Shown here: positions 124-55,655 of the stretch, piece by piece
Position numbering within the stretch: the first letter of the stretch is position 1
How the letters are laid out: each line of letters begins with the position of its first letter
Virus record (IMG/VR): IMGVR_UViG_3300036781_000236
Coordinates: 23,999 to 87,998 of that record
DNA length: 64,000 nucleotides
From: a virus
Reading direction: 5' to 3' (one strand)
The notes under the pieces: generated by a model
Told to the model about the DNA's origin: nothing
What the model saw: only the letters and a program-made list of their open reading frames with translations
The model's database searches: none
Position numbers and translations under genes: made by a program

Positions 124-735
124 CGGCGGGAGTGGGATTCGAACCCACGCACCCCGAAGGGCCTAGCGCGCTAGCAACAGAAGTCTCTCTAAGAGACACA
201 CTCAAGCGTGTAATCATTGATCTTACGAACTACCAGAAGATTTCGTGTAATCTCAGCGTGGTGATTCGGACAAATAGCAAACATGTTACCTACCTCGTAT
301 TTACCGCCGTCTTTACCAGGAACAAGCCTATGGATATCAAAGGTTTTAGAATACTCGCACCCTTCAATCATGCAATATGTGAAGAGAAACCTTTCTGACA
401 AAAAATCTAAACGGCGTGTTGAATCATTTCTTGCTGGACGTTCTCTACCTCTTGTTGGTCTTTGTCGCTTAGCGACACAACTCTTACTACAAAACCGTGA
501 CTTTTTTGAAAAGGGCGAAAACTCCTTATCGCAATTCTCACATCTCTTCGTTGGGAGACGGCGTCGCAACCCATCGCATGCCTTTGAGCAATAGACATTT
601 CGGCTAATGACTAACTGACTAGGACGCCTATAAATAGGCGTACTACATACCGAGCACACAGTATTGGGTGTTCTCATCGTCTGCTGTGCCATAGTGTTTC
701 AGCCGTGCCCTCTTGAACCACTTGAGTACCCCGCC
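124..735 (-). tRNA. Split tRNA-Ser (probably GCT): 5' half about 704-735, 3' half about 124-177, interrupted by an HNH ORF
   Basis: 5' half GGCGGGG-TA-CTC-AAGTGGTTCAA-GAG-G-GCACG; 3' half TTGCTAG-CGCGC-variable arm-GTGGG-TTCGAAT-CCCAC-TCCCGCC-G; the two acceptor strands pair. Confidence 0.7.
189..692 (-). CDS. HNH endonuclease with Cys-rich zinc modules, inserted in a tRNA
   Basis: CSVC..YCSKAC and CENC..FCSKSC modules; DIHRLVP-GKDGG-Y..GN...ICPNHH HNH core; AT-richer than flanks. Confidence 0.8.
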   Translation of the reverse strand: MAQQTMRTPNTVCSVCSTPIYRRPSQLVISRNVYCSKACDGLRRRLPTKRCENCDKEFSPFSKKSRFCSKSCVAKRQRPTRGRERPARNDSTRRLDFLSERFLFTYCMIEGCEYSKTFDIHRLVPGKDGGKYEVGNMFAICPNHHAEITRNLLVVRKINDYTLECVS

Positions 736-830
736 GAGAACGGCTATGTGGTGCGGGTACTCATGAGCGGCACATAGTCGGGATGGTACCACGCTTGCGG
801 TGCCCCACCCCTATGTGTAGGGTAGCAACC

Positions 831-1682
831 ATGACACGAAAAACAGTCAACCGCGATAAGCTGGAGGCATGGCTTGACGAGCAAGGTATCGTCGCTGACG
901 TTACGTTGCTGTTCGAGAAGCCACCGAAGGCACCACGCTACGCAGAACGGAACGCCGAAGCCGCACGTCTCTACACCGAAGAACGCCTGACGCTCCAGGA
1001 GATCGGTGACCGCTTCGGTGTCACCCGAGAATCCGTGCGGCTGTGGTTGAAAGCAGCGAACGTACCGAAGGTTGCGGTGCGGTCCCGGACCACGGAGCGC
1101 CGTAACCTGCGGATCGCCGCGCTGGTGGAACGCCGCGACGAGATGCGCGCGATGTACTTCGAGTGCGGTAACACCCCAGCTTTCGCGAAGCGTCTCGGTG
1201 TCGGACCAGCTATCGCGAAAGGGGTGGTAGACGCGGTGATCGGACGGGATGAGTGGCGGTTAGCGAAAGTGTGCGGTGCTCATCGCGTCTCCGACGACCT
1301 CCTCAGTGGCTATCTCCGTGACGCGGCGGCGCAGGTAGGCCAGGATGTGCCTCTCACCTACAAGGCTTACGACGAGATCGCGGAAGCCCGTGGGTGGCCC
1401 ACACACCAGACGTTCGAGTTGAGGTGGGGAGGATGGCGCGACGCCTGTTCCGCGAACGGTGTGCGGTGCAACGACGTTCGACGTTCCTACACTCGTAAGT
1501 GGCCCGCGGAGAAGTGCTGGGAGTGCGTCCGCGGACTCGCCGTCGAAATCGGTCGTGTCCCCACAGTCACCGAGTACGAGCTGTGGAGCAAGGGACATCC
1601 AGACCGTGCGTCGGTTGCGATTGTGCGTCGCCGTATCGGAGGATGGAAGGACGTGATCCGTACCCTCAGCACCGAACTGTGA
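831..1682 (+). CDS. DNA-binding protein: sigma70-region-4-like HTH plus two homing-endonuclease-associated-repeat-like domains
   Basis: TLQEIGDRFGVTRESVRLW HTH; repeats PLTYKAYD...PTHQTFELRWGGW and PTVTEYE...ASVAIVRRRIGGW; leaderless promoter TTGCGG-17-TAGGGT before the ATG at 831. Confidence 0.7.
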   Translation: MTRKTVNRDKLEAWLDEQGIVADVTLLFEKPPKAPRYAERNAEAARLYTEERLTLQEIGDRFGVTRESVRLWLKAANVPKVAVRSRTTERRNLRIAALVERRDEMRAMYFECGNTPAFAKRLGVGPAIAKGVVDAVIGRDEWRLAKVCGAHRVSDDLLSGYLRDAAAQVGQDVPLTYKAYDEIAEARGWPTHQTFELRWGGWRDACSANGVRCNDVRRSYTRKWPAEKCWECVRGLAVEIGRVPTVTEYELWSKGHPDRASVAIVRRRIGGWKDVIRTLSTEL

Positions 1683-1724
1683 ACGTCACGCGGGCGTGAC
1701 AGTCCTGCTATACGATGCTGGTTC

Positions 1725-1807
1725 GCGCGAGTGGTGGAACGGCATACACGATGCGCTCAAAACGCATTGCCCTTCGGGGCTTGAGGGTTCGAATCCCTCC
1801 TCGCGCA
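1725..1807 (+). tRNA. tRNA-Leu (CAA)
   Basis: GCGCGAG/CTCGCGC acceptor, ATGCG-CTCAAAA-CGCAT anticodon arm, long variable arm, GAGGG-TTCGAAT-CCCTC. Confidence 0.92.
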
Positions 1808-1892
1808 CTTAGGTAGAATGGGGCCAGCGGGCGCGAACCCGCCGACCCCGATACGGGGCCACATCACAACCACGACGAAGGAGTAGCCCCGA

Positions 1893-2429
1893 ATGCAGAA
1901 CACTACCGGAGGACTCTGCGAGTGCGGGTGTGGACAGCCAGCTCCTCTTGCTAAGCGGACAGATAGGCGTCAGGGGACTGTCAAAGGAGAGCCACAACGC
2001 TACATACGTGGTCACAGTATGAAGTCTGGACCCGACGATGTACCTCGTGAGTGTGCTTGTGGGTGTGGAAAACTTACTACCCTGAGAAACGGTCATGCCA
2101 AGAAGTTCGTTCACGGGCATAACTCAGAAGTACGAAATATTACAGAGGCAGACTACACCGTAACCGAAACTGGATTCGGTACACCTTGTTGGATTTGGAA
2201 TCGAACCACTAGCGAGGGGCGCGGTAAAGTACAGATTGACAAGAAGAAGACATACCCATATCGTGTCTTGTACACAATGCTAGTCGGAGAAATACCGCAA
2301 GGCTATGTGCTACATCATCTATGTGAGAACCCGCTATGTGTCAACCCCGAACATCTCCAACCAATGACTCAATCAAAACATATTAAACTACATCGAATAC
2401 CTGGGCATAACCGAAGATCAGATTCCTAA
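1893..2429 (+). CDS. HNH endonuclease with CxCGCG repeats
   Basis: CECGCG/CACGCG repeats, TPCWIW, LHHLCENPLCVNPEHL; RBS AAGGAG. Confidence 0.85.
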   Translation: MQNTTGGLCECGCGQPAPLAKRTDRRQGTVKGEPQRYIRGHSMKSGPDDVPRECACGCGKLTTLRNGHAKKFVHGHNSEVRNITEADYTVTETGFGTPCWIWNRTTSEGRGKVQIDKKKTYPYRVLYTMLVGEIPQGYVLHHLCENPLCVNPEHLQPMTQSKHIKLHRIPGHNRRSDS

Positions 2430-3683
2430 ATCGTTCATTCCTAATAGTGATGCGCAACTAGCATCGCCGCTAGTATTACCGATTGGGCGACTATAACCCT
2501 GTACGTCTGGACTCCAAACTGCGGCGCGCATCTTCGCGCGCGTTCGGTTGTACGCCGACAGGAACGCGTCAACTGCGACCAGACCAGTCCCAGTGTTGGA
2601 GAAGAAATCAGCGAGCAACTCTCTCTCCACCTCGATTCCTTGCCGGGTGACCTTGGTGACGCCAGCGGGGAGCACGCAGTCCTCACCGTCACCGCACGCG
2701 AGGTACAGCTGACACGCCATCTGCTTCGCGGCCTGCAACCCCAACGGTGGCGGCGGGACACCCCACAAGTAGTCCACCGAGAACGTGCCTGGCTGGTCAT
2801 CGTTCAGATCGAGCGCCTGGCATGACGGCCAGAATCCTTGGATGTACGTGGAGTCCGGTGTCGCTCCAGGGAGGCTCATGCGGGTCAGGTACCGCCACTC
2901 ATCGAGCCGGTAGCAGTCGGGGTCAAGCACCTCACCGTTGATCGTCACCTTCAAGATTTGCCGTACGGGGTAGCCGGACAAGCGCACACGGCTAAGTCCG
3001 TTGCAGCCCATCTGCTGACCGTTCTCGTTCCACCATCCCCACCCTGCCCCGTAGCCGCCGCCCCACGCGTACCCGCCCGCGTAACCACCGGGCAGCCACA
3101 GCCACGGCCCTAGCCCGGACGCCCACGAGCACCCGCACGCCTGGTTCATCGGCCGGACGTGAGCGTGAGTCAACCCTGGGAACTGACGACCGGACATTTG
3201 GTACAGCAGCATCCCCGCCTCCACGGCGACCATGTCCCACACCGCCGCGTTATCCGCGTACGTCGCGGAGCAGCACGCGGCTGCTTCCTGCCCCGTGATC
3301 CAGTTCACCGTTGGCCCCTCGACAGGCATCGGCGGAATGGTGCTGACGGGGCCATACGGGGTGTACACGTAGCCTTGCAACTGGAACTCGTACACCGTCA
3401 CACCGTTCACTTCGGTGACGTTCACGAACCCAGCGGACCCACCGAGATAGAGGGACGCCCAGTTCCCGTAGGCGGCGCTAACGGCCGTCTCGACCTGCGC
3501 CTGCGTAGATCCTTCCGCCAACAAACCCACCTTGTCGGTGCCCCACCCTGTCGTAGAACCACCCTCGAAGTACGCGCACACGATCCACCCGACGGTGCCC
3601 TCTGTCTGTTCGCTGAAATACTGCTCCCACGTCGGGGTGGCTAGACACGACTCGTACGGTGGGTAGGGAGGCAGGACGCTCAT
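2418..3683 (-). CDS. Head-to-tail adaptor with N-terminal extension
   Basis: LYQMSGRQF...VRP..C.C, LDPDCYRLD, WPSCQ, ACQLYLAC, LPAGVTKVTRQG pattern of actinophage adaptors; follows tail tube gene. Confidence 0.7.
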   Translation of the reverse strand: MSVLPPYPPYESCLATPTWEQYFSEQTEGTVGWIVCAYFEGGSTTGWGTDKVGLLAEGSTQAQVETAVSAAYGNWASLYLGGSAGFVNVTEVNGVTVYEFQLQGYVYTPYGPVSTIPPMPVEGPTVNWITGQEAAACCSATYADNAAVWDMVAVEAGMLLYQMSGRQFPGLTHAHVRPMNQACGCSWASGLGPWLWLPGGYAGGYAWGGGYGAGWGWWNENGQQMGCNGLSRVRLSGYPVRQILKVTINGEVLDPDCYRLDEWRYLTRMSLPGATPDSTYIQGFWPSCQALDLNDDQPGTFSVDYLWGVPPPPLGLQAAKQMACQLYLACGDGEDCVLPAGVTKVTRQGIEVERELLADFFSNTGTGLVAVDAFLSAYNRTRAKMRAAVWSPDVQGYSRPIGNTSGDASCASLLGMNDLGI

Positions 3684-23732: not shown

Positions 23733-24023
23733 CTATTCGTCCCGGCCGAACGCCTGATCGCGAGCGCGACGCAGGTGACGGATCAGGTCGTTGATCGCCT
23801 GCCGGTCAAGATCAACGTAGAAACCGCCCAGGCTGATTTCCCTAACGTCCGTTCCAGTGGCATCAGACATGACACGAACACCGTCTGCGCCTGTCTGCGC
23901 GTCGACACACTTACTCACGACTTGCACATACTGGTCGCGGTTCCAACGAACCTCGACTATGGCCTTGCGCGGGTCGTTCTCGTCAAAAGCCAGTGGGCTT
24001 CCGTACACGGATTCTTTGGGCAT
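23733..24023 (-). CDS. Hypothetical phage protein
   Basis: RBS AGGAGG; LDRQAINDLIRHLRRARDQAFGRDE tail. Confidence 0.7.
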   Translation of the reverse strand: MPKESVYGSPLAFDENDPRKAIVEVRWNRDQYVQVVSKCVDAQTGADGVRVMSDATGTDVREISLGGFYVDLDRQAINDLIRHLRRARDQAFGRDE

Positions 24024-50679: not shown

Positions 50680-51426
50680 TCACTCCTCGGTAAATACGGG
50701 TTGGTGGGAAGCGGCAGGATCAAGAGCACGATGACGCGGGTCTGGGCGCACGCTCACCCACCGCACCAACTGACCCAGTTCGTGCGGTCCCAGAGCAGGT
50801 ACTTGTTTCCGGCGTGGCGCTGGCTTCACCACCCGTGCACAATGGTCGTCCACCTCGATCAGCCCTAGATCGGCGGGGACCCACACCGTCGGGGCCGTCA
50901 GCTCCACCGTGGACTTCGCGAGATAGCCCCTCCCGCCGCACACCCGGCACTCAATGGTGCGGTAGCCGCCATAGGCTCCGTAGCCGTCCTTGGCGTCGTA
51001 CGGGTACCGCGACACATGACGTGACGCAGTCGTCGGGACAGGAACCATCTCCTTGCAGCGGCCGTGACGGCGGTTCGGGCACCACGACCGGCTGAACGCA
51101 TCGTCGTCCCAAACGGGTTCCACGAACGCCAATTCCGCGGCGGTCAGCAAGCCCTTCGGGACAGCCAACCAGAACTCGTTACACCACTCCACGTTCAACA
51201 AGCGCTTCCGTGGATTCAACAACTCCTGCCGCAGATCGCTACGAGACACCTTCACCTCGTAGCCCACCCGTGCATGCCCGCACGGTTTCGTAGACCCCCA
51301 CGCCGACATAGCCAAAAGGTCGATGTTGCGCCACTCCTCAAGGCACGTCCACGCACCAGGACCAGCCACAGGTCCGAGCGCCGGGTGACGGCGGTACAAC
51401 GCCGCCTTCACCTCAGCCGCAGTCAC
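50680..51426 (-). CDS. MmcB-like PD-(D/E)xK nuclease
   Basis: IDLLAM...GYEVKVSRSDLRQEL..P.K, FWLAVP. Confidence 0.7.
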   Translation of the reverse strand: MTAAEVKAALYRRHPALGPVAGPGAWTCLEEWRNIDLLAMSAWGSTKPCGHARVGYEVKVSRSDLRQELLNPRKRLLNVEWCNEFWLAVPKGLLTAAELAFVEPVWDDDAFSRSWCPNRRHGRCKEMVPVPTTASRHVSRYPYDAKDGYGAYGGYRTIECRVCGGRGYLAKSTVELTAPTVWVPADLGLIEVDDHCARVVKPAPRRKQVPALGPHELGQLVRWVSVRPDPRHRALDPAASHQPVFTEE

Positions 51427-51652
51427 CCGTCCGCCTTCTCCAACAACATCCGGATTGTCGGCGGATCGCAAGCAGCGATGAACTCCGCCAGCGACGACGG
51501 GAAATCCGGGTTCTCGAACACCTCCGCGACCTCAACCACCGATCCGACCGCGAACACGTGCTGCGGGTAGCCGCCACGCCACTCCCACGGCCGATCCACA
51601 TTCGTACCGCTAAGACGCGCCAGCGCGATCCGCAACCTGTCCATGTTCCCGC

Positions 51653-53911
51653 TCAACCCAACACATCCCACAAATCCATCTGGCCGCTCTCAACCACCGA
51701 CTCCTTCTCACGCTCCGCTGCATCCCGCGCGTACATCACCGCGAGCGCATCCTCACCATGCTCCGCCCAAAACGCGACCCGTGCTTCTGCGACAGCCATG
51801 TAGTCCTGCTCACGCTCAATCCCGATGAACCGTGCCCCCTCAAGAACCGCCGCGCAACCCGTCGACCCCGACCCCATGAACGGGTCCAACACCGTCCCCC
51901 CAGGTGGCGTGACAAGACGGATCAGGTACCGCATCAAGTCGATGGGCTTCACGGTCGGGTGATGATTCGCACGCGCCGTCGCGCCACGAAGCCGCGGATT
52001 ATCCGCCGCAACCTTCCGTCCGTCAGTCCAAACAGAGGCTGCGTCTGCCTCAAGACCAGCACTGCGCTCCGCGCGGCTGACTTTAGGGCAGTAGAAGAAC
52101 CGCGACGCCCCTCCCATGTCGTCGTACTCCGCACCCGTCGAAGTCATGCCCCACCCATCGCCCGGAGCGGCAGAGGCGCGCGGCGCGCCGATACGGCTGA
52201 CCGACTCCCCGGTCTGCGCGTCGAGGATCACGCCAGCCTCGGCGTCGAGGATCACGTTCGCGGGCCAGCGACCGCTATTAAGTTCCTCTGTGGTACATGC
52301 GCCATACTCTCCATACACCTGATTCGTGCGGATGCCGTCACCAATCGGAAGATCGCGAGTACCTCCATTAGTACCAATCCTGCACGCGTCGATGTTGAGC
52401 GCCCCAGTGCCGTGCGCGAGGACGTTCGCGGCGACAGTCCCTATCAGTGGCTTGCGTGCGACGACGATCGGCTCGAACGCCGGTTCAGGACTTGCGTCGG
52501 CTGCGGTGGTAGCAGTCTGGCCCGCAGAACTTGCCACCGCCAGGACGCCTGAACTCACGTCCGCAACCTGCGCAAGTGCTGACGCCACCGCGAGCGCGAT
52601 GGGCTCGATAGCAGTCGCGGGAGCAGAAGCACTCAGGATGTCGAGCCACTTCGTCCATTCGACGCTCGAAGGAGCGTCCACATTCTGTGCATAGCACGGT
52701 TGCCCAACGGTCAGGCACTCGCACACTGGCATGGTGGTCGGCGATGTGAGCGGCGCGAGTAGTGAGTTCAAGGTTCTCAAGGCGGTTGTCGTGCTTGATG
52801 CCGTTGAGGTGGTGGACATTCTCGTCTGTGTTGAGAGGTCGGCCAAGATGCTGCTCCATGACTTGACGATGTTCGAGCACGTTGCGGCCAGCGCCAGTGA
52901 GTTGTACGTACCCGTCCGCTCGGATTCGTCGGGTGACATGACCGTTGCGACACTCACGCGAGCAGAAACGCACCATGCCGCGTGCGGCCCGCGAAGACTT
53001 GACAAGGAAGGATTCACCGCACGCTTCGCAGGTGTGAGTGCTAGCCATAGAAGTGCCGCGAGACCATGGTGGATAGTGTTGACTTCATCCCAACATGGTA
53101 CCGGACTAAACGGCTTTTGAGCCCATACGACTGGCTCGTGCGCAGGTTTGAGCGCTGTTCCCCAGCCCTGCCACTCGCGGGCGGCGCTGGTGTACGGAGA
53201 CGTGATCGGAACAACGCGTGTCGCGCCTGTCCCTCCGTGCGTTTCGCCCGCGAATCCAAGGCGGGACTCCGATGTGTCGACCATCTCCGCCACGCCGATT
53301 ATCTCTCTTGCTTTGAAGTCCTGAGACTCGACGGTTCGTTCAGCGACTAGCCTCTCGATCTCGGCGGGAACCGCCGGAAGGTACGGTCGAAGAAGATCAA
53401 ATAGATCAGCCGTCGCGACGCTCGGCTGAGTCGGGTGGGTCGTGAGGTGATGCCCCATGTCCGTCCCAGTGATCTCGTTCACCCGTTGCGGAGTCATGTG
53501 CTCGCGTAGCCATGTCTGGAACGTGCGTGCTCGATCCAGCCGTTCCACCGACGCATCGAGCTTGTCGATCCCCTTTGATACATCAAGGCTTTTGGGAAAT
53601 CCTGAGCCGAACATCCAAGCGATCTGGTCGCGTATATCGAATCCAGCGTCCTCGATAGCGACGGCGATCCGATGAACTGTGCGGGTGCCACCAAACGCCA
53701 ACAGATGGCCGCCAGGCTTCAGCACACGGAGAGCAGCCTCCCACGTTTTCGGATCGAACGCGACCCCAGAACTGTCCCACGATTTTCCCATGAACCCGAG
53801 TTCGTACGGCGGGTCGCACACGACCGCGTCAACGGATTCCGGTTCGATCGCAGCCATCGCTTCGACGCAGTCGCCGAGGATCAGCCGGGGGGTGAAATCG
53901 GTGCCCGTCAC
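51653..53911 (-). CDS. N6/N4 DNA methyltransferase with about 200-aa insertion carrying a nested HNH gene
   Basis: DPPY, LKPGG, GSGFPKS, GRWPAN, HPTVKP, VLDPFMGSGST; KPAHEPVVWAQKP duplicated as EPAFEPIVVARKP. Confidence 0.9.
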   Translation of the reverse strand: MTGTDFTPRLILGDCVEAMAAIEPESVDAVVCDPPYELGFMGKSWDSSGVAFDPKTWEAALRVLKPGGHLLAFGGTRTVHRIAVAIEDAGFDIRDQIAWMFGSGFPKSLDVSKGIDKLDASVERLDRARTFQTWLREHMTPQRVNEITGTDMGHHLTTHPTQPSVATADLFDLLRPYLPAVPAEIERLVAERTVESQDFKAREIIGVAEMVDTSESRLGFAGETHGGTGATRVVPITSPYTSAAREWQGWGTALKPAHEPVVWAQKPFSPVPCWDEVNTIHHGLAALLWLALTPAKRAVNPSLSSLRGPHAAWCVSARVSVATVMSPDESERTGTYNSLALAATCSNIVKSWSSILADLSTQTRMSTTSTASSTTTALRTLNSLLAPLTSPTTMPVCECLTVGQPCYAQNVDAPSSVEWTKWLDILSASAPATAIEPIALAVASALAQVADVSSGVLAVASSAGQTATTAADASPEPAFEPIVVARKPLIGTVAANVLAHGTGALNIDACRIGTNGGTRDLPIGDGIRTNQVYGEYGACTTEELNSGRWPANVILDAEAGVILDAQTGESVSRIGAPRASAAPGDGWGMTSTGAEYDDMGGASRFFYCPKVSRAERSAGLEADAASVWTDGRKVAADNPRLRGATARANHHPTVKPIDLMRYLIRLVTPPGGTVLDPFMGSGSTGCAAVLEGARFIGIEREQDYMAVAEARVAFWAEHGEDALAVMYARDAAEREKESVVESGQMDLWDVLG
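52485..53048 (-). CDS. HNH endonuclease nested off-frame in the methyltransferase
   Basis: CEAC..FCSREC, EHRQVMEQHLGRPL...ENVHHLNGIKHDNRLENLEL, further FCS/FCG zinc modules. Confidence 0.88.
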   Translation of the reverse strand: MASTHTCEACGESFLVKSSRAARGMVRFCSRECRNGHVTRRIRADGYVQLTGAGRNVLEHRQVMEQHLGRPLNTDENVHHLNGIKHDNRLENLELTTRAAHIADHHASVRVPDRWATVLCTECGRSFERRMDEVARHPECFCSRDCYRAHRARGGVSTCAGCGREFRRPGGGKFCGPDCYHRSRRKS

Positions 53912-54111
53912 GCCCGCGTGAGAACAGTGCTATACGAACGCACGGTTCAGGCGCTCCGCCGCCTTACGACACACCCCACGACAATACTTCCGCCTATCCT
54001 CGAACGACCGCGGCGCGAACTCCGCATCACAGAACTCGCAGCGACGCACAGCGAGTCTCCGGCGGCGCGCCAGGTCGATCAGTTCCCGCACCCGTTGCCG
54101 CTGCCACGCGT

Positions 54112-54525
54112 TCACTGGCTGCCCCTAGCGTCGAACGCGGTGAACTCGATACCGCGACGGTTCTTCTCGACCCGCAACGCCAACGCCAGTTCCGGGTGCC
54201 CCGCGAGATATATCTCGCACTCGCAGAAGCAGTAGTTCGCGTCGCAGTAACGGTGATGAACCAAACCCATACCCCCCGGTGACCGAAGCACGCGCTTCTT
54301 CCGCGCAGAACGCTTTGTCACTGGTTCCTCGTTCGTCTCGTCGGGGAGACGATTTCCTTTCGCGCTATTACACGGTCCGCACATCGTCTGCAAGTTCTCG
54401 TGCCGGTTCGTGCCGCCACGCGACAACGGCACGATATGGTCAATCGTCAAATCATCGGACGTTCCGCACGCCACGCACCGGTGGTTGTCGCGGGCGTACA
54501 CCTTCTGGCGCTTCCCCTCACGCAC
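54112..54525 (-). CDS. HNH endonuclease
   Basis: RDNHRCVACG..LTIDHIVPLSRGG...NLQTMC..CNSAKG. Confidence 0.88.
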   Translation of the reverse strand: MREGKRQKVYARDNHRCVACGTSDDLTIDHIVPLSRGGTNRHENLQTMCGPCNSAKGNRLPDETNEEPVTKRSARKKRVLRSPGGMGLVHHRYCDANYCFCECEIYLAGHPELALALRVEKNRRGIEFTAFDARGSQ

Positions 54526-55093
54526 CGTCTAATCCCTCCAACGGCGGGTGCTCTGCCTTCGCGCGCGCCCGACGCGCAGCGCGCTTCTCAGCAGACGGAG
54601 ACAACCCCAACAGCAACCCCGGTGCCGCCTGCCAGTCAACCCACGCACGTCCCACCTGGCCGCTCCCAGGGAACAGATCGTCCAAGGTGTCGTCCGGGCG
54701 CGCACCAAGCCACTCGAACACCCACCGGCAGAACGCCACCGGCTTCTGACCGATCACGTAACTGTCGGGCTTCACCCGCCACTGATAGGAGTCCGGCTCA
54801 ACCTGGTTCCAGTCCCTCACCCCCTGCGGGACACGAGCCGACATGACGATCACGGGTTCCCACGACACCGTGACGGTGTGCTTCACCCACGCCAACACCC
54901 GAGCTTCGCGCGGGCACAACGGCAAGATCCACCGGAGCGACTCCGCGTTCGTGCACAGCGCCCACCCGTCATAGCCGTCATATCGGAGCTTCCAGATCAG
55001 CTCCTCGTGGTCAACCTCACCCGCATAATCGGGGTGGTCCGCATACAGGTGCGCGCGCCCAGGGTAGGGCGGATCGGCCACCGCGAGCCTCAC
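54518..55093 (-). CDS. Small N6/N4 DNA methyltransferase
   Basis: ADPPYPG, WEPVI, GQKP..F, DDLFPGSG. Confidence 0.75.
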   Translation of the reverse strand: MRLAVADPPYPGRAHLYADHPDYAGEVDHEELIWKLRYDGYDGWALCTNAESLRWILPLCPREARVLAWVKHTVTVSWEPVIVMSARVPQGVRDWNQVEPDSYQWRVKPDSYVIGQKPVAFCRWVFEWLGARPDDTLDDLFPGSGQVGRAWVDWQAAPGLLLGLSPSAEKRAARRARAKAEHPPLEGLDGA

Positions 55094-55655
55094 GACTGCG
55101 CGAACGGTGTCGCGGCGAACGGCGAAACGATCCACGTGCCCGTCTCGCACACCCGGCCGCCAGGCTGCACGTCAAGTACCCCGCAGATCGACTCCCCCTC
55201 GTCCGTGAGCACCACGAGCGCGACACCGACCGCGCCTGGGTCGGCGCACGCGCACACCACTGCCAAGTCCGCGCCGTCCCACTTATACAACCTGTACCTG
55301 TACGCGGGATTGTCGCGCGGCCATAGATCGTCTGTCGTCAAACGCGTCAGGTCGGTCACGCGGGCTTCTCCTGCTGCACCGTCAACCGTGCATCCGCGAA
55401 CGCGAACGCCCTCGTCAGAGCGTCATGCGTCGCGTTCAAACCCGCCATCGCCGCCACGATCTCCGGGGCCAACTCAGGATCGAGGGCAACGAGCGCCTGC
55501 AACGAGTCCAGGGTGTGACGGGTGTAGGTCAGCGACCCGAGGAGACGTTCGGAGCAGCGCGCGTACAGCAGCAGCTGCTCCATCCTCAACCGGATCAGAT
55601 CCTCCGCTTCGGTCATACCCCCATCGTATAGCAGGGAACGTGGGAGCGCAAGTGT

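Follow-up and report, generated by a model that had tools for sequence, protein, structure and literature searches.

An HNH endonuclease gene, probably of the ShiLan type, within the open methyltransferase frame of an uncultivated virus

In the uncultivated virus of record IMGVR_UViG_3300036781_000236 (87,998 bases) the gene of a DNA methyltransferase contains a second gene, which encodes an HNH endonuclease on the same strand in another reading frame, and the methyltransferase frame nevertheless continues through it from start to end. The analysis concerned positions 23,999 to 87,998 of the record, a stretch of 64,000 nucleotides that is called the window here. The element in the window is probably a divergent member of the ShiLan-type "hidden HNH" homing elements, which reside in N6/N4 methyltransferase genes of phages. 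The ShiLan domain was first described in 2023 as an enigmatic mobile insertion (Gosselin et al., PMC9957025) and in 2025 was found to conceal an HNH gene in another frame (Arsenault, Gosselin & Gogarten, PMC11855218). Both studies are computational, and in the literature searched the term is confined to them. The arrangement is thus already published and its discovery is not new, contrary to what an initial annotation of the window, made from the letters alone, had implied.

Relation to the ShiLan domain and to other known systems

The methyltransferase (methylase) belongs to PF01555 (N6_N4_Mtase, E 1.4e-30), with the best-matching stretch at residues 640-709, and is identical to a database protein, P0001. 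Residues 9-256 match phrog_6025 and residues 483-720 match phrog_3008. The open reading frame (ORF) of the endonuclease, present as a single copy in the record, matches PF13392 (HNH_3, E 7.6e-10) and HNH families of PHROGs (best E 6e-18). The initial annotation had described a 187-residue HNH ORF in another frame of the same strand between two differently coded copies of a methylase motif, a TGA of this ORF that overlaps the point where the methylase resumes, and a Ser/Thr/Ala-rich methylase frame that has no stop over about 200 codons and rejoins in frame. All of this holds (Table 1). The TGA (52485-52487) sits in the TGAA (52484-52487) that forms the final four bases of the insertion, two codons ahead of AFEP, and Ser, Thr and Ala make up 41% of the inserted 221-codon stretch versus 25% of the remaining methylase. 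The insertion raises the predicted mass of the methylase from 56.9 to 79.7 kDa.

The insertion boundaries were taken from alignments with the insert-free database proteins P0004, P0007, P0008 and P0012 according to the convention of PMC11855218. In these alignments and in those with the insert-free alleles of Quico and Gompeii16, the site lies between ...GWGTALK and PAFEPIVVARKP. The insertion is present in 40 of the best 120 database homologs of the window methylase and absent from the other 80.

When the HNH sequence was compared with a phage collection by tblastn, the best matches fell within coding sequences (CDSs) annotated as methylases (44-49% identity, E 6e-33 to 6e-26). They came from the mycobacteriophages Starcevich, Bipolar, Pollywog, MISSy, Murica, Filuzino, OwlsT2W, ShiLan, Mantra and Totinger and from the Cylindrospermopsis phage Cr-LKS3; the mycobacteriophage methylases are themselves 43-52% identical to that of the window (tblastn). 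The ShiLan HNH is 45.3% identical to the window HNH over residues 6-152 (E 3e-31), and the hidden HNHs of ShiLan, Bipolar and Cr-LKS3 together span 45-49% identity. Bipolar, Cr-LKS3, Mantra and ShiLan likewise have an uninterrupted methylase ORF with the HNH gene in its frame +2, at the same site, and a duplicated motif.

The window thus shares with the ShiLan gp65-type methylases the PF01555 host, the site after ...GWGTALK, the stop-free host frame and a homologous HNH (PMC9957025, PMC11855218), and in both the first 11 or so inserted residues mimic those that follow the insertion, and no intron or intein signature is seen. The two differ in the length of the insertion (202 codons in ShiLan, 221 in the window), in the stop of the HNH gene (TAA within TAAC in ShiLan, TGA within TGAA in the window) and in the residue after the insertion, which is Thr or Ser in the known members and Pro in the window. 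The window HNH also has a third, C-terminal zinc-ribbon-like CxxC pair, common to the related loci L009-L012, and has lost a Shine-Dalgarno (SD)-like motif before its start. Moreover, ShiLan is a cultured mycobacteriophage, whereas the window stems from an uncultivated virus record. A search of sequencing runs for this DNA returned a single DNA run, a soil metagenome from which the record may derive, and no RNA run.

A second hidden HNH gene, that of Pacc40 gp60 (PMC11855218), is likewise overprinted on a methylase ORF that remains open, but it belongs to another HNH lineage and occupies another site in a methylase of a different family; it shows that the strategy recurs rather than that the two are one element. 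With I-HmuI, a Foldseek match of the ShiLan HNH (PMC11855218, Table 1), and other intron-borne HNHs of its type, the window HNH has in common an HNH_3-type nuclease with flanking DNA-binding modules, a conserved site in a phage gene and a patchy distribution. In those systems, however, the host frame is broken and a ribozyme restores the host mRNA, whereas in the window no ribozyme was found and the frame is preserved.

Table 1 Features of the methyltransferase gene and its insertion (positions refer to the window)
Feature	Position	Strand	Description
Whole methyltransferase ORF	51653..53911	-	752 residues, GTG start, continuous through the insertion
Methylase N-terminal part	53147..53911	-	residues 1-255; DPPY at 33-36; terminus ...GWGTALK; based on alignments with insert-free alleles
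Insertion, probably ShiLan-type	52484..53146	-	663 nt = 221 codons, residues 256-476; methylase frame stop-free
Upstream motif copy KPAHEPVVWAQKP	53111..53149	-	residues 255-267; insertion starts after the first K
HNH endonuclease ORF	52485..53048	-	187 residues, methylase frame +2, ATG start; three CxxC...C zinc-ribbon-like pairs and HNH_3 core
Downstream motif copy EPAFEPIVVARKP	52448..52486	-	residues 476-488; first codon overlapped by the HNH stop; counterpart of the single copy in alignments with insert-free alleles
Methylase C-terminal part	51653..52483	-	residues 477-752; start of the target-recognition region, HPTVKP, FxGSG S-adenosylmethionine motif

The stop-free methylase frame and its possible explanations

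Relatives were gathered with a profile of four HNH sequences, which yielded 80 viral contigs and 21 genome contigs, and the N-terminal part of the window methylase, the HNH and the C-terminal methylase part were placed on all loci. The end of the N-terminal part, the HNH and the start of the C-terminal part are present in 33 loci, the window included. In all 33 the HNH frame is the methylase frame +2 and the two methylase parts share one frame, and in 32 the gap of 504-624 nt contains no methylase-frame stop. L031, with a methylase too divergent for automatic sorting, is a 34th nested and open case, which brings the open frames to 33 of 34 and the recurrences of the nested architecture to 33 besides the window. 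Two open loci are low in guanine plus cytosine (G+C), namely L030 (gap 0.36) and L091 (0.40), the latter from a Cloacimonadota metagenome-assembled genome (MAG). The arrangement is widespread well outside the mycobacteriophages: besides a cyanophage, contigs from MAGs of Betaproteobacteria and Cloacimonadota and viral contigs of low G+C contain it. L053 is not a nested case, its HNH gene preceding the methylase.

At 90% nucleotide identity the 33 loci form 15 clusters, some loci being the same phage from two collections; 71 free-standing relatives of the HNH, 64 of them non-redundant, served as controls. The methylase-equivalent (+1) frame contains no stop in 2457 codons of the 15 nested lineages, versus 221 in 6025 codons of the 64 free-standing relatives (3.67 per 100), only 2 of which have none. 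In the other shifted frame the corresponding rates are 4.64 and 5.29 per 100 codons. The avoidance extends to codon and residue choice: of the xTN codons that precede a codon starting with A, 138 of 315 in the free-standing HNHs but 0 of 101 in the nested ones have A or G as their last base, and the dipeptides M[KNTIM], which force a TGA, number 0 in the nested and 15 in the free-standing HNHs. The methylase frame across the insertion is kept stop-free by selection. A depletion of stops among homologs, named in the initial annotation as a check, is therefore what the data reveal.

It could be argued that the methylase is dead and that its frame is open only because the sequence is rich in G+C; at the G+C content of the window (about 60%) long spurious ORFs are common. 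Synonymous-codon shuffles of the window HNH gave a mean of 3.0 stops and were stop-free in 0.2% of trials; across the lineages this share was 0.15-65%, and at its upper end the shuffles lend chance some support. As xTG and xTA codons have already been lost from the codon pool, however, the shuffle errs on the conservative side as a null, and since the stop-free share spans 0.0015-0.65 per locus, the main reliance is on the comparison with the free-standing relatives. These have a similar G+C content and yet contain stops at the rate given above, and the loci at 36-40% G+C are open as well. In addition, D33, P34, P35 and Y36, G680, S681 and G682 and other core residues do not vary in any of 32 aligned insert-bearing alleles, so that the catalytic motifs of the methylase stay conserved in invaded alleles. 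A dead gene with a fortuitously open frame can practically be dismissed.

The open methylase frame would be incidental if the HNH ORF belonged to a self-splicing intron that has gone unrecognised and leaves the mRNA. Group I introns are present in streptococcal phage lysin genes, and in the Streptococcus phage Javan616 (L192:1679-4064) two CDS fragments, both annotated as lysin amidase, flank a relative of the HNH (43% identity over residues 6-121), the typical layout of an intron-borne homing endonuclease; the locus appears to show the same HNH lineage in a host gene with a broken frame. Another point in favour is the likeness of the insertion start to the downstream exon, which was considered as a possible guide-sequence signature in PMC11855218. 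Rfam 15, however, gave no match at E<=10 on either strand of 51000-54600, a scan that does not fully exclude a divergent ribozyme, and no intron was found by RNAweasel/MFannot on ShiLan (PMC11855218). Outside the HNH ORF only about 100 nt on the 5' side and about 0 nt on the 3' side are left for a ribozyme, in line with the small space noted in the initial annotation. Finally, an intron needs no open host frame, yet the frame is open in nearly all loci, with 0 stops where about 90 would be expected at the free-standing rate. An intron is accordingly quite improbable.

The initial annotation had offered two ways in which the host gene might be spared, an overprinted, tolerated loop and ribosomal hopping between the duplicated motifs. 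The first agrees with the depletion of stops and with the published model (PMC11855218), whereas the second does not fit a frame open in 33 of 34 loci. Hopping would take the ribosomes from the first to the second motif copy and past the HNH gene, and the two similar motifs that flank the insertion, each with Lys-Pro codons at its end, could be viewed as take-off and landing sites. The bypass of T4 gene 60 also adjoins a mobile endonuclease insertion. Bypasses of that type, however, have a short non-coding gap of tens of nucleotides, the take-off codon matches the landing codon and is directly followed by a stop, and those known measure about 50 nt or less. In the window the gap is 663 nt, no stop follows any would-be take-off site and the motif copies share 25 of 39 bases only. 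Since bypassing would also give no reason for a selected stop-free frame, including that of the two loci at 36-40% G+C, it can hardly be taken seriously as an explanation.

Removal at the protein level would call for an unconventional intein, with a methylase-frame peptide that splices itself out after translation. Like inteins, the insertion is in frame, at a conserved site and patchily distributed (PMC9957025), and inteins with homing endonuclease domains are likewise co-translated with the host protein, use a conserved motif as their site and spread by homing. In contrast to them, the window insertion starts with Pro256 and ends with Glu476, preceded by Pro and followed by Pro477, so that the junctions offer no Cys, Ser or Thr nucleophile and no His-Asn. 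No Hint or intein family was found in Pfam at E<=0.01, and the AlphaFold2 (AF2) models contain helices or disorder in place of a beta-rich Hint fold. The absence of intein motifs, remarked on in the initial annotation, is thereby corroborated. In addition, the endonuclease gene uses another frame and would yield a protein of its own, the peptide lacks residue-level constraint and the insert is presumably retained in the mature enzyme. An intein is very improbable, more so than an intron.

An intein-like arrangement is seen at another site. In an IMG/VR contig (L017, 3300012020_000007) the open methylase ORF of 1110 residues (288-3620) contains, beside a ShiLan-type insert, a second insertion of about 1.2 kb (1121-2340). 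It starts with Cys after AWVYG and ends with ...PTGN before SGFPKS, and although these ends are intein-like, no Pfam Hint family was detected at E<=0.01. Within it a 316-residue HNH_3 ORF (1189-2139, E 7.7e-7) lies in host frame +1, and the host frame is open across. This second insertion may be an intein with an endonuclease encoded out of frame.

More weight has to be given to true dual coding, in which the methylase-frame peptide would be a functional domain of the enzyme, for example a helical arm that alters DNA binding. The frame is open over deep divergence, AF2 with a deep alignment predicted helices at residues 274-290, 315-333, 339-360, 371-389 and 417-453 (predicted local distance difference test score, pLDDT, 60-78), and a small helical hairpin was also seen by the authors of PMC11855218. 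When AF2 was given insert-bearing sequences only, however, residues 270-477 all had a pLDDT below 50, and Pfam gave no match in the methylase-frame insert. Conservation in the methylase frame, such as TSTTST, follows from the conserved HVHH of the HNH. The codon positions are informative in the young cluster L002 (11 loci, the cyanophage included), where 22, 9 and 52 variable columns fall on HNH codon positions 1, 2 and 3, a pattern that points to purifying selection on the HNH protein. Since HNH position 3 is methylase position 2, 52 of the 83 variable columns are at methylase codon position 2, versus 9 at HNH position 2. Most of these changes alter the read-through peptide, which therefore seems to be unconstrained except for a ban on stops. 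We consider a functional domain unlikely, although less so than the other alternatives to an overprinted, tolerated loop.

Start, mobility and surroundings of the HNH gene

In PMC11855218 the start of the HNH gene was placed at a GTG 18 bases into the insertion; no ribosome-binding site was seen there and leaderless initiation was proposed. In 12 of the 15 lineages, however, an SD-like word (GGAGG, GGAG or AGGAG) lies 4-8 nt before a start located 4-7 codons ahead of the first CxxC; the lineages without it are L030, L089 and the window. ShiLan has a second in-frame GTG at offset 96, after CTGGAGGACGA and 4 codons ahead of the first CxxC, and in Bipolar a stop separates the two GTGs. Because the SD-like word precedes the proximal start in so many lineages, ordinary internal initiation appears likelier than leaderless initiation as the general mechanism, which runs counter to the published proposal (PMC11855218). 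In the window the HNH ORF is intact, including the residues invariant among four aligned HNHs, and its expression may be weak because the SD-like motif is gone. A fusion of methylase and HNH by -1 frameshifting was rejected, as the HNH frame is closed 13 codons upstream of the ATG and no slippery heptamer was seen there. The HNH profile gave 0 matches at E<=0.01 among solved structures.

Mobility of the element can be seen in the relatives. In the 55 pairs of cluster L002 the insert is 89-100% identical, versus 36-78% for the methylase flanks, which were taken as rough fixed windows of 450 nt; in these relatives the element thus moves between divergent methylase alleles. This extends the horizontal spread reported in 2023 (PMC9957025) to uncultivated viruses. 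The window methylase itself is a mosaic at the protein level when compared with the insert-free P0004, with 156 of 159 residues identical C-terminally, 32 of 37 N-terminally and divergence between them, which fits an exchange of the central segment together with the element. A search of the phage collection for near-identical DNA returned only two 107-nt matches, in the region of the downstream motif, and among viral contigs searched with the C-terminal part of the window methylase none was closer than 58%.

Upstream of the methylase in the window lies a free-standing HNH gene (54112-54525, minus strand; PF14279, E 9e-14; PF01844), comparable to ShiLan gp64 and Daenerys gp60. Between the two genes a 61-residue ORF (53930-54115, minus strand) contains a CxxC...CxxxC zinc ribbon and weakly matches phrog_1271 (HNH, E 3.3e-4). 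Two genes upstream of the methylase, a 210-residue ORF (54518-55150, minus strand) with a DPPY motif and no Pfam or PHROG match may encode a second, divergent DNA methyltransferase.

The methylase genes of the relatives are interrupted in further ways. In many mycobacteriophages, such as Daenerys (L004:2282-2422), DRBy19 (L005), Atcoo (L006) and ShiLan (L191:3566-3706), the methylase is annotated as two genes with a 30-residue ORF between them, and the C-terminal 85 or so residues (HPTVKP, FxGSG) lie in another frame beyond a spacer of about 180 nt. Three loci (L009:3296-4142, L010:3323-4760 and L016:3203-4193) have a second interruption of 850-1440 nt farther downstream, from residue ~82 to residues ~124-175 of the C-terminal part, at which the methylase shifts frame and an ORF of 211-239 residues with zinc-ribbon/HNH-like features intervenes; unlike the open ShiLan site, it resembles a split gene or an insertion of the intron type. 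In Mantra (L003:1413-3737) an in-frame LAGLIDADG-like insertion (…LAGLIDGEGCF…) without a visible splicing domain occupies residues ~60-215 after DPPY and corresponds to the "second endonuclease" of PMC9957025.

The duplicated motif, a proposed mechanism and its meaning

The two motif copies, KPAHEPVVWAQKP and EPAFEPIVVARKP, are identical in 8 of 13 residues and 25 of 39 bases; they share the pattern KPxxEPxVxAxKP and are coded differently. The first 11 or so inserted residues accordingly resemble the first 11 or so residues past the insertion. Insert-free alleles (Quico gp82, Gompeii16 gp58, P0004, P0007, P0008 and P0012) have ...GWGTALKPAFEPIVVARKPL... once. The conservation of the copies was determined in the 32 insert-bearing alleles already mentioned, which comprise the window, 17 database proteins (>=90% coverage, P0014 excluded) and 14 locus translations; truncated, redundant or doubly interrupted loci were left out. 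In the upstream copy the residues K, P, E, A, K and P are unchanged in all 32, and also in 40 of 40 insert-bearing database alleles. The Glu of the downstream copy is E in 19, D in 11 and another residue in 2 of the 32, and the single copy of the insert-free alleles has E in 80 of 80. With insert-bearing sequences only, AF2 predicted a strand for the upstream copy (255-265, pLDDT 62-77) and none for the downstream copy. From these data we infer that the conserved Glu and the strand now come from the insertion-borne copy and that constraint on the native copy is relaxed.

The mechanism proposed here goes beyond the sequence patterns, and its steps are inferred from them. The insertion would be removed neither from the RNA nor from the protein, and ribosomes would translate the methylase straight through it, giving rise to an enzyme of about 80 kDa. 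Its 221 extra residues would form a largely unconstrained Ser/Thr/Ala-rich loop that leads from the motif-VIII strand to the target-recognition region. The HNH would be produced separately by internal initiation at the start 4-7 codons ahead of the first CxxC and would cut or nick insert-free alleles near the conserved KPAFEPIVVARKP coding sequence, after which repair would copy the element in. In this process the duplicated motif would serve as a spare part: the methylase would draw on the copy at the 5' end of the insertion to complete its N-terminal lobe, and constraint on the displaced downstream copy would be relaxed. The element might in this sense be self-complementing: it would bring along a motif-VIII strand (KPxxExxxxAxKP), the N-terminal lobe would be complete before the loop of 200 residues begins, and the native downstream copy would be drifting. 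We regard this as a serious possibility but stop short of calling it probable.

Several observations weigh against the model. The loci share ancestry, so that the counts given above are not independent events, and in L014, the one locus with an interrupted frame, the methylase reading frame meets a TAG before the HNH gene begins. In the window no SD-like word occurs within 20 nt before the only possible start of the HNH, the ATG at 53048, and the protein may be poorly made or on its way to decay. Two half-size PHROGs families, phrog_6025 (192 residues), which ends at residue 256, and phrog_3008 (244 residues, matched from profile position 1), which begins at residue 483, hint at split forms of the methylase at the insertion site; when such forms were sought among shorter homologs, the best 120 were all compact full-length proteins of 327-412 residues. 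The downstream copy is not simply decaying, as its A, R and K are each retained in 30 of 32 alleles and its P in all 32. In AF2 with a mixed alignment, which had put the single copy of the insert-free sequences onto the downstream copy, that copy became a strand (482-486, pLDDT about 92) and the upstream copy was disordered. The prediction is therefore equivocal as to which copy joins the fold, the answer flipping with the alignment.

Homing endonuclease genes are thought to persist in essential or useful genes by hiding in self-splicing introns or inteins. ShiLan-type elements suggest another solution, in which nothing is spliced and the host gene is read through the parasite in another frame. 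The member in the window is useful in this respect, since the Pro at the +1 position rules out intein chemistry and P0004 provides a natural, insert-free partial counterpart. Four points go beyond the published description: selection is supported quantitatively, the range of hosts is wider, an SD-like motif usually precedes the proximal start, and the two motif copies are unequally conserved. The last two were not found in the portions consulted of PMC9957025 and PMC11855218. If the self-complementing reading is true, it would explain that both motif copies differ from the canonical target sequence, which would render the element immune to cleavage by its own endonuclease. Structural complementation together with a stop-free overprinted linker would then be a third harmless route for homing endonuclease genes, besides RNA splicing and protein splicing.

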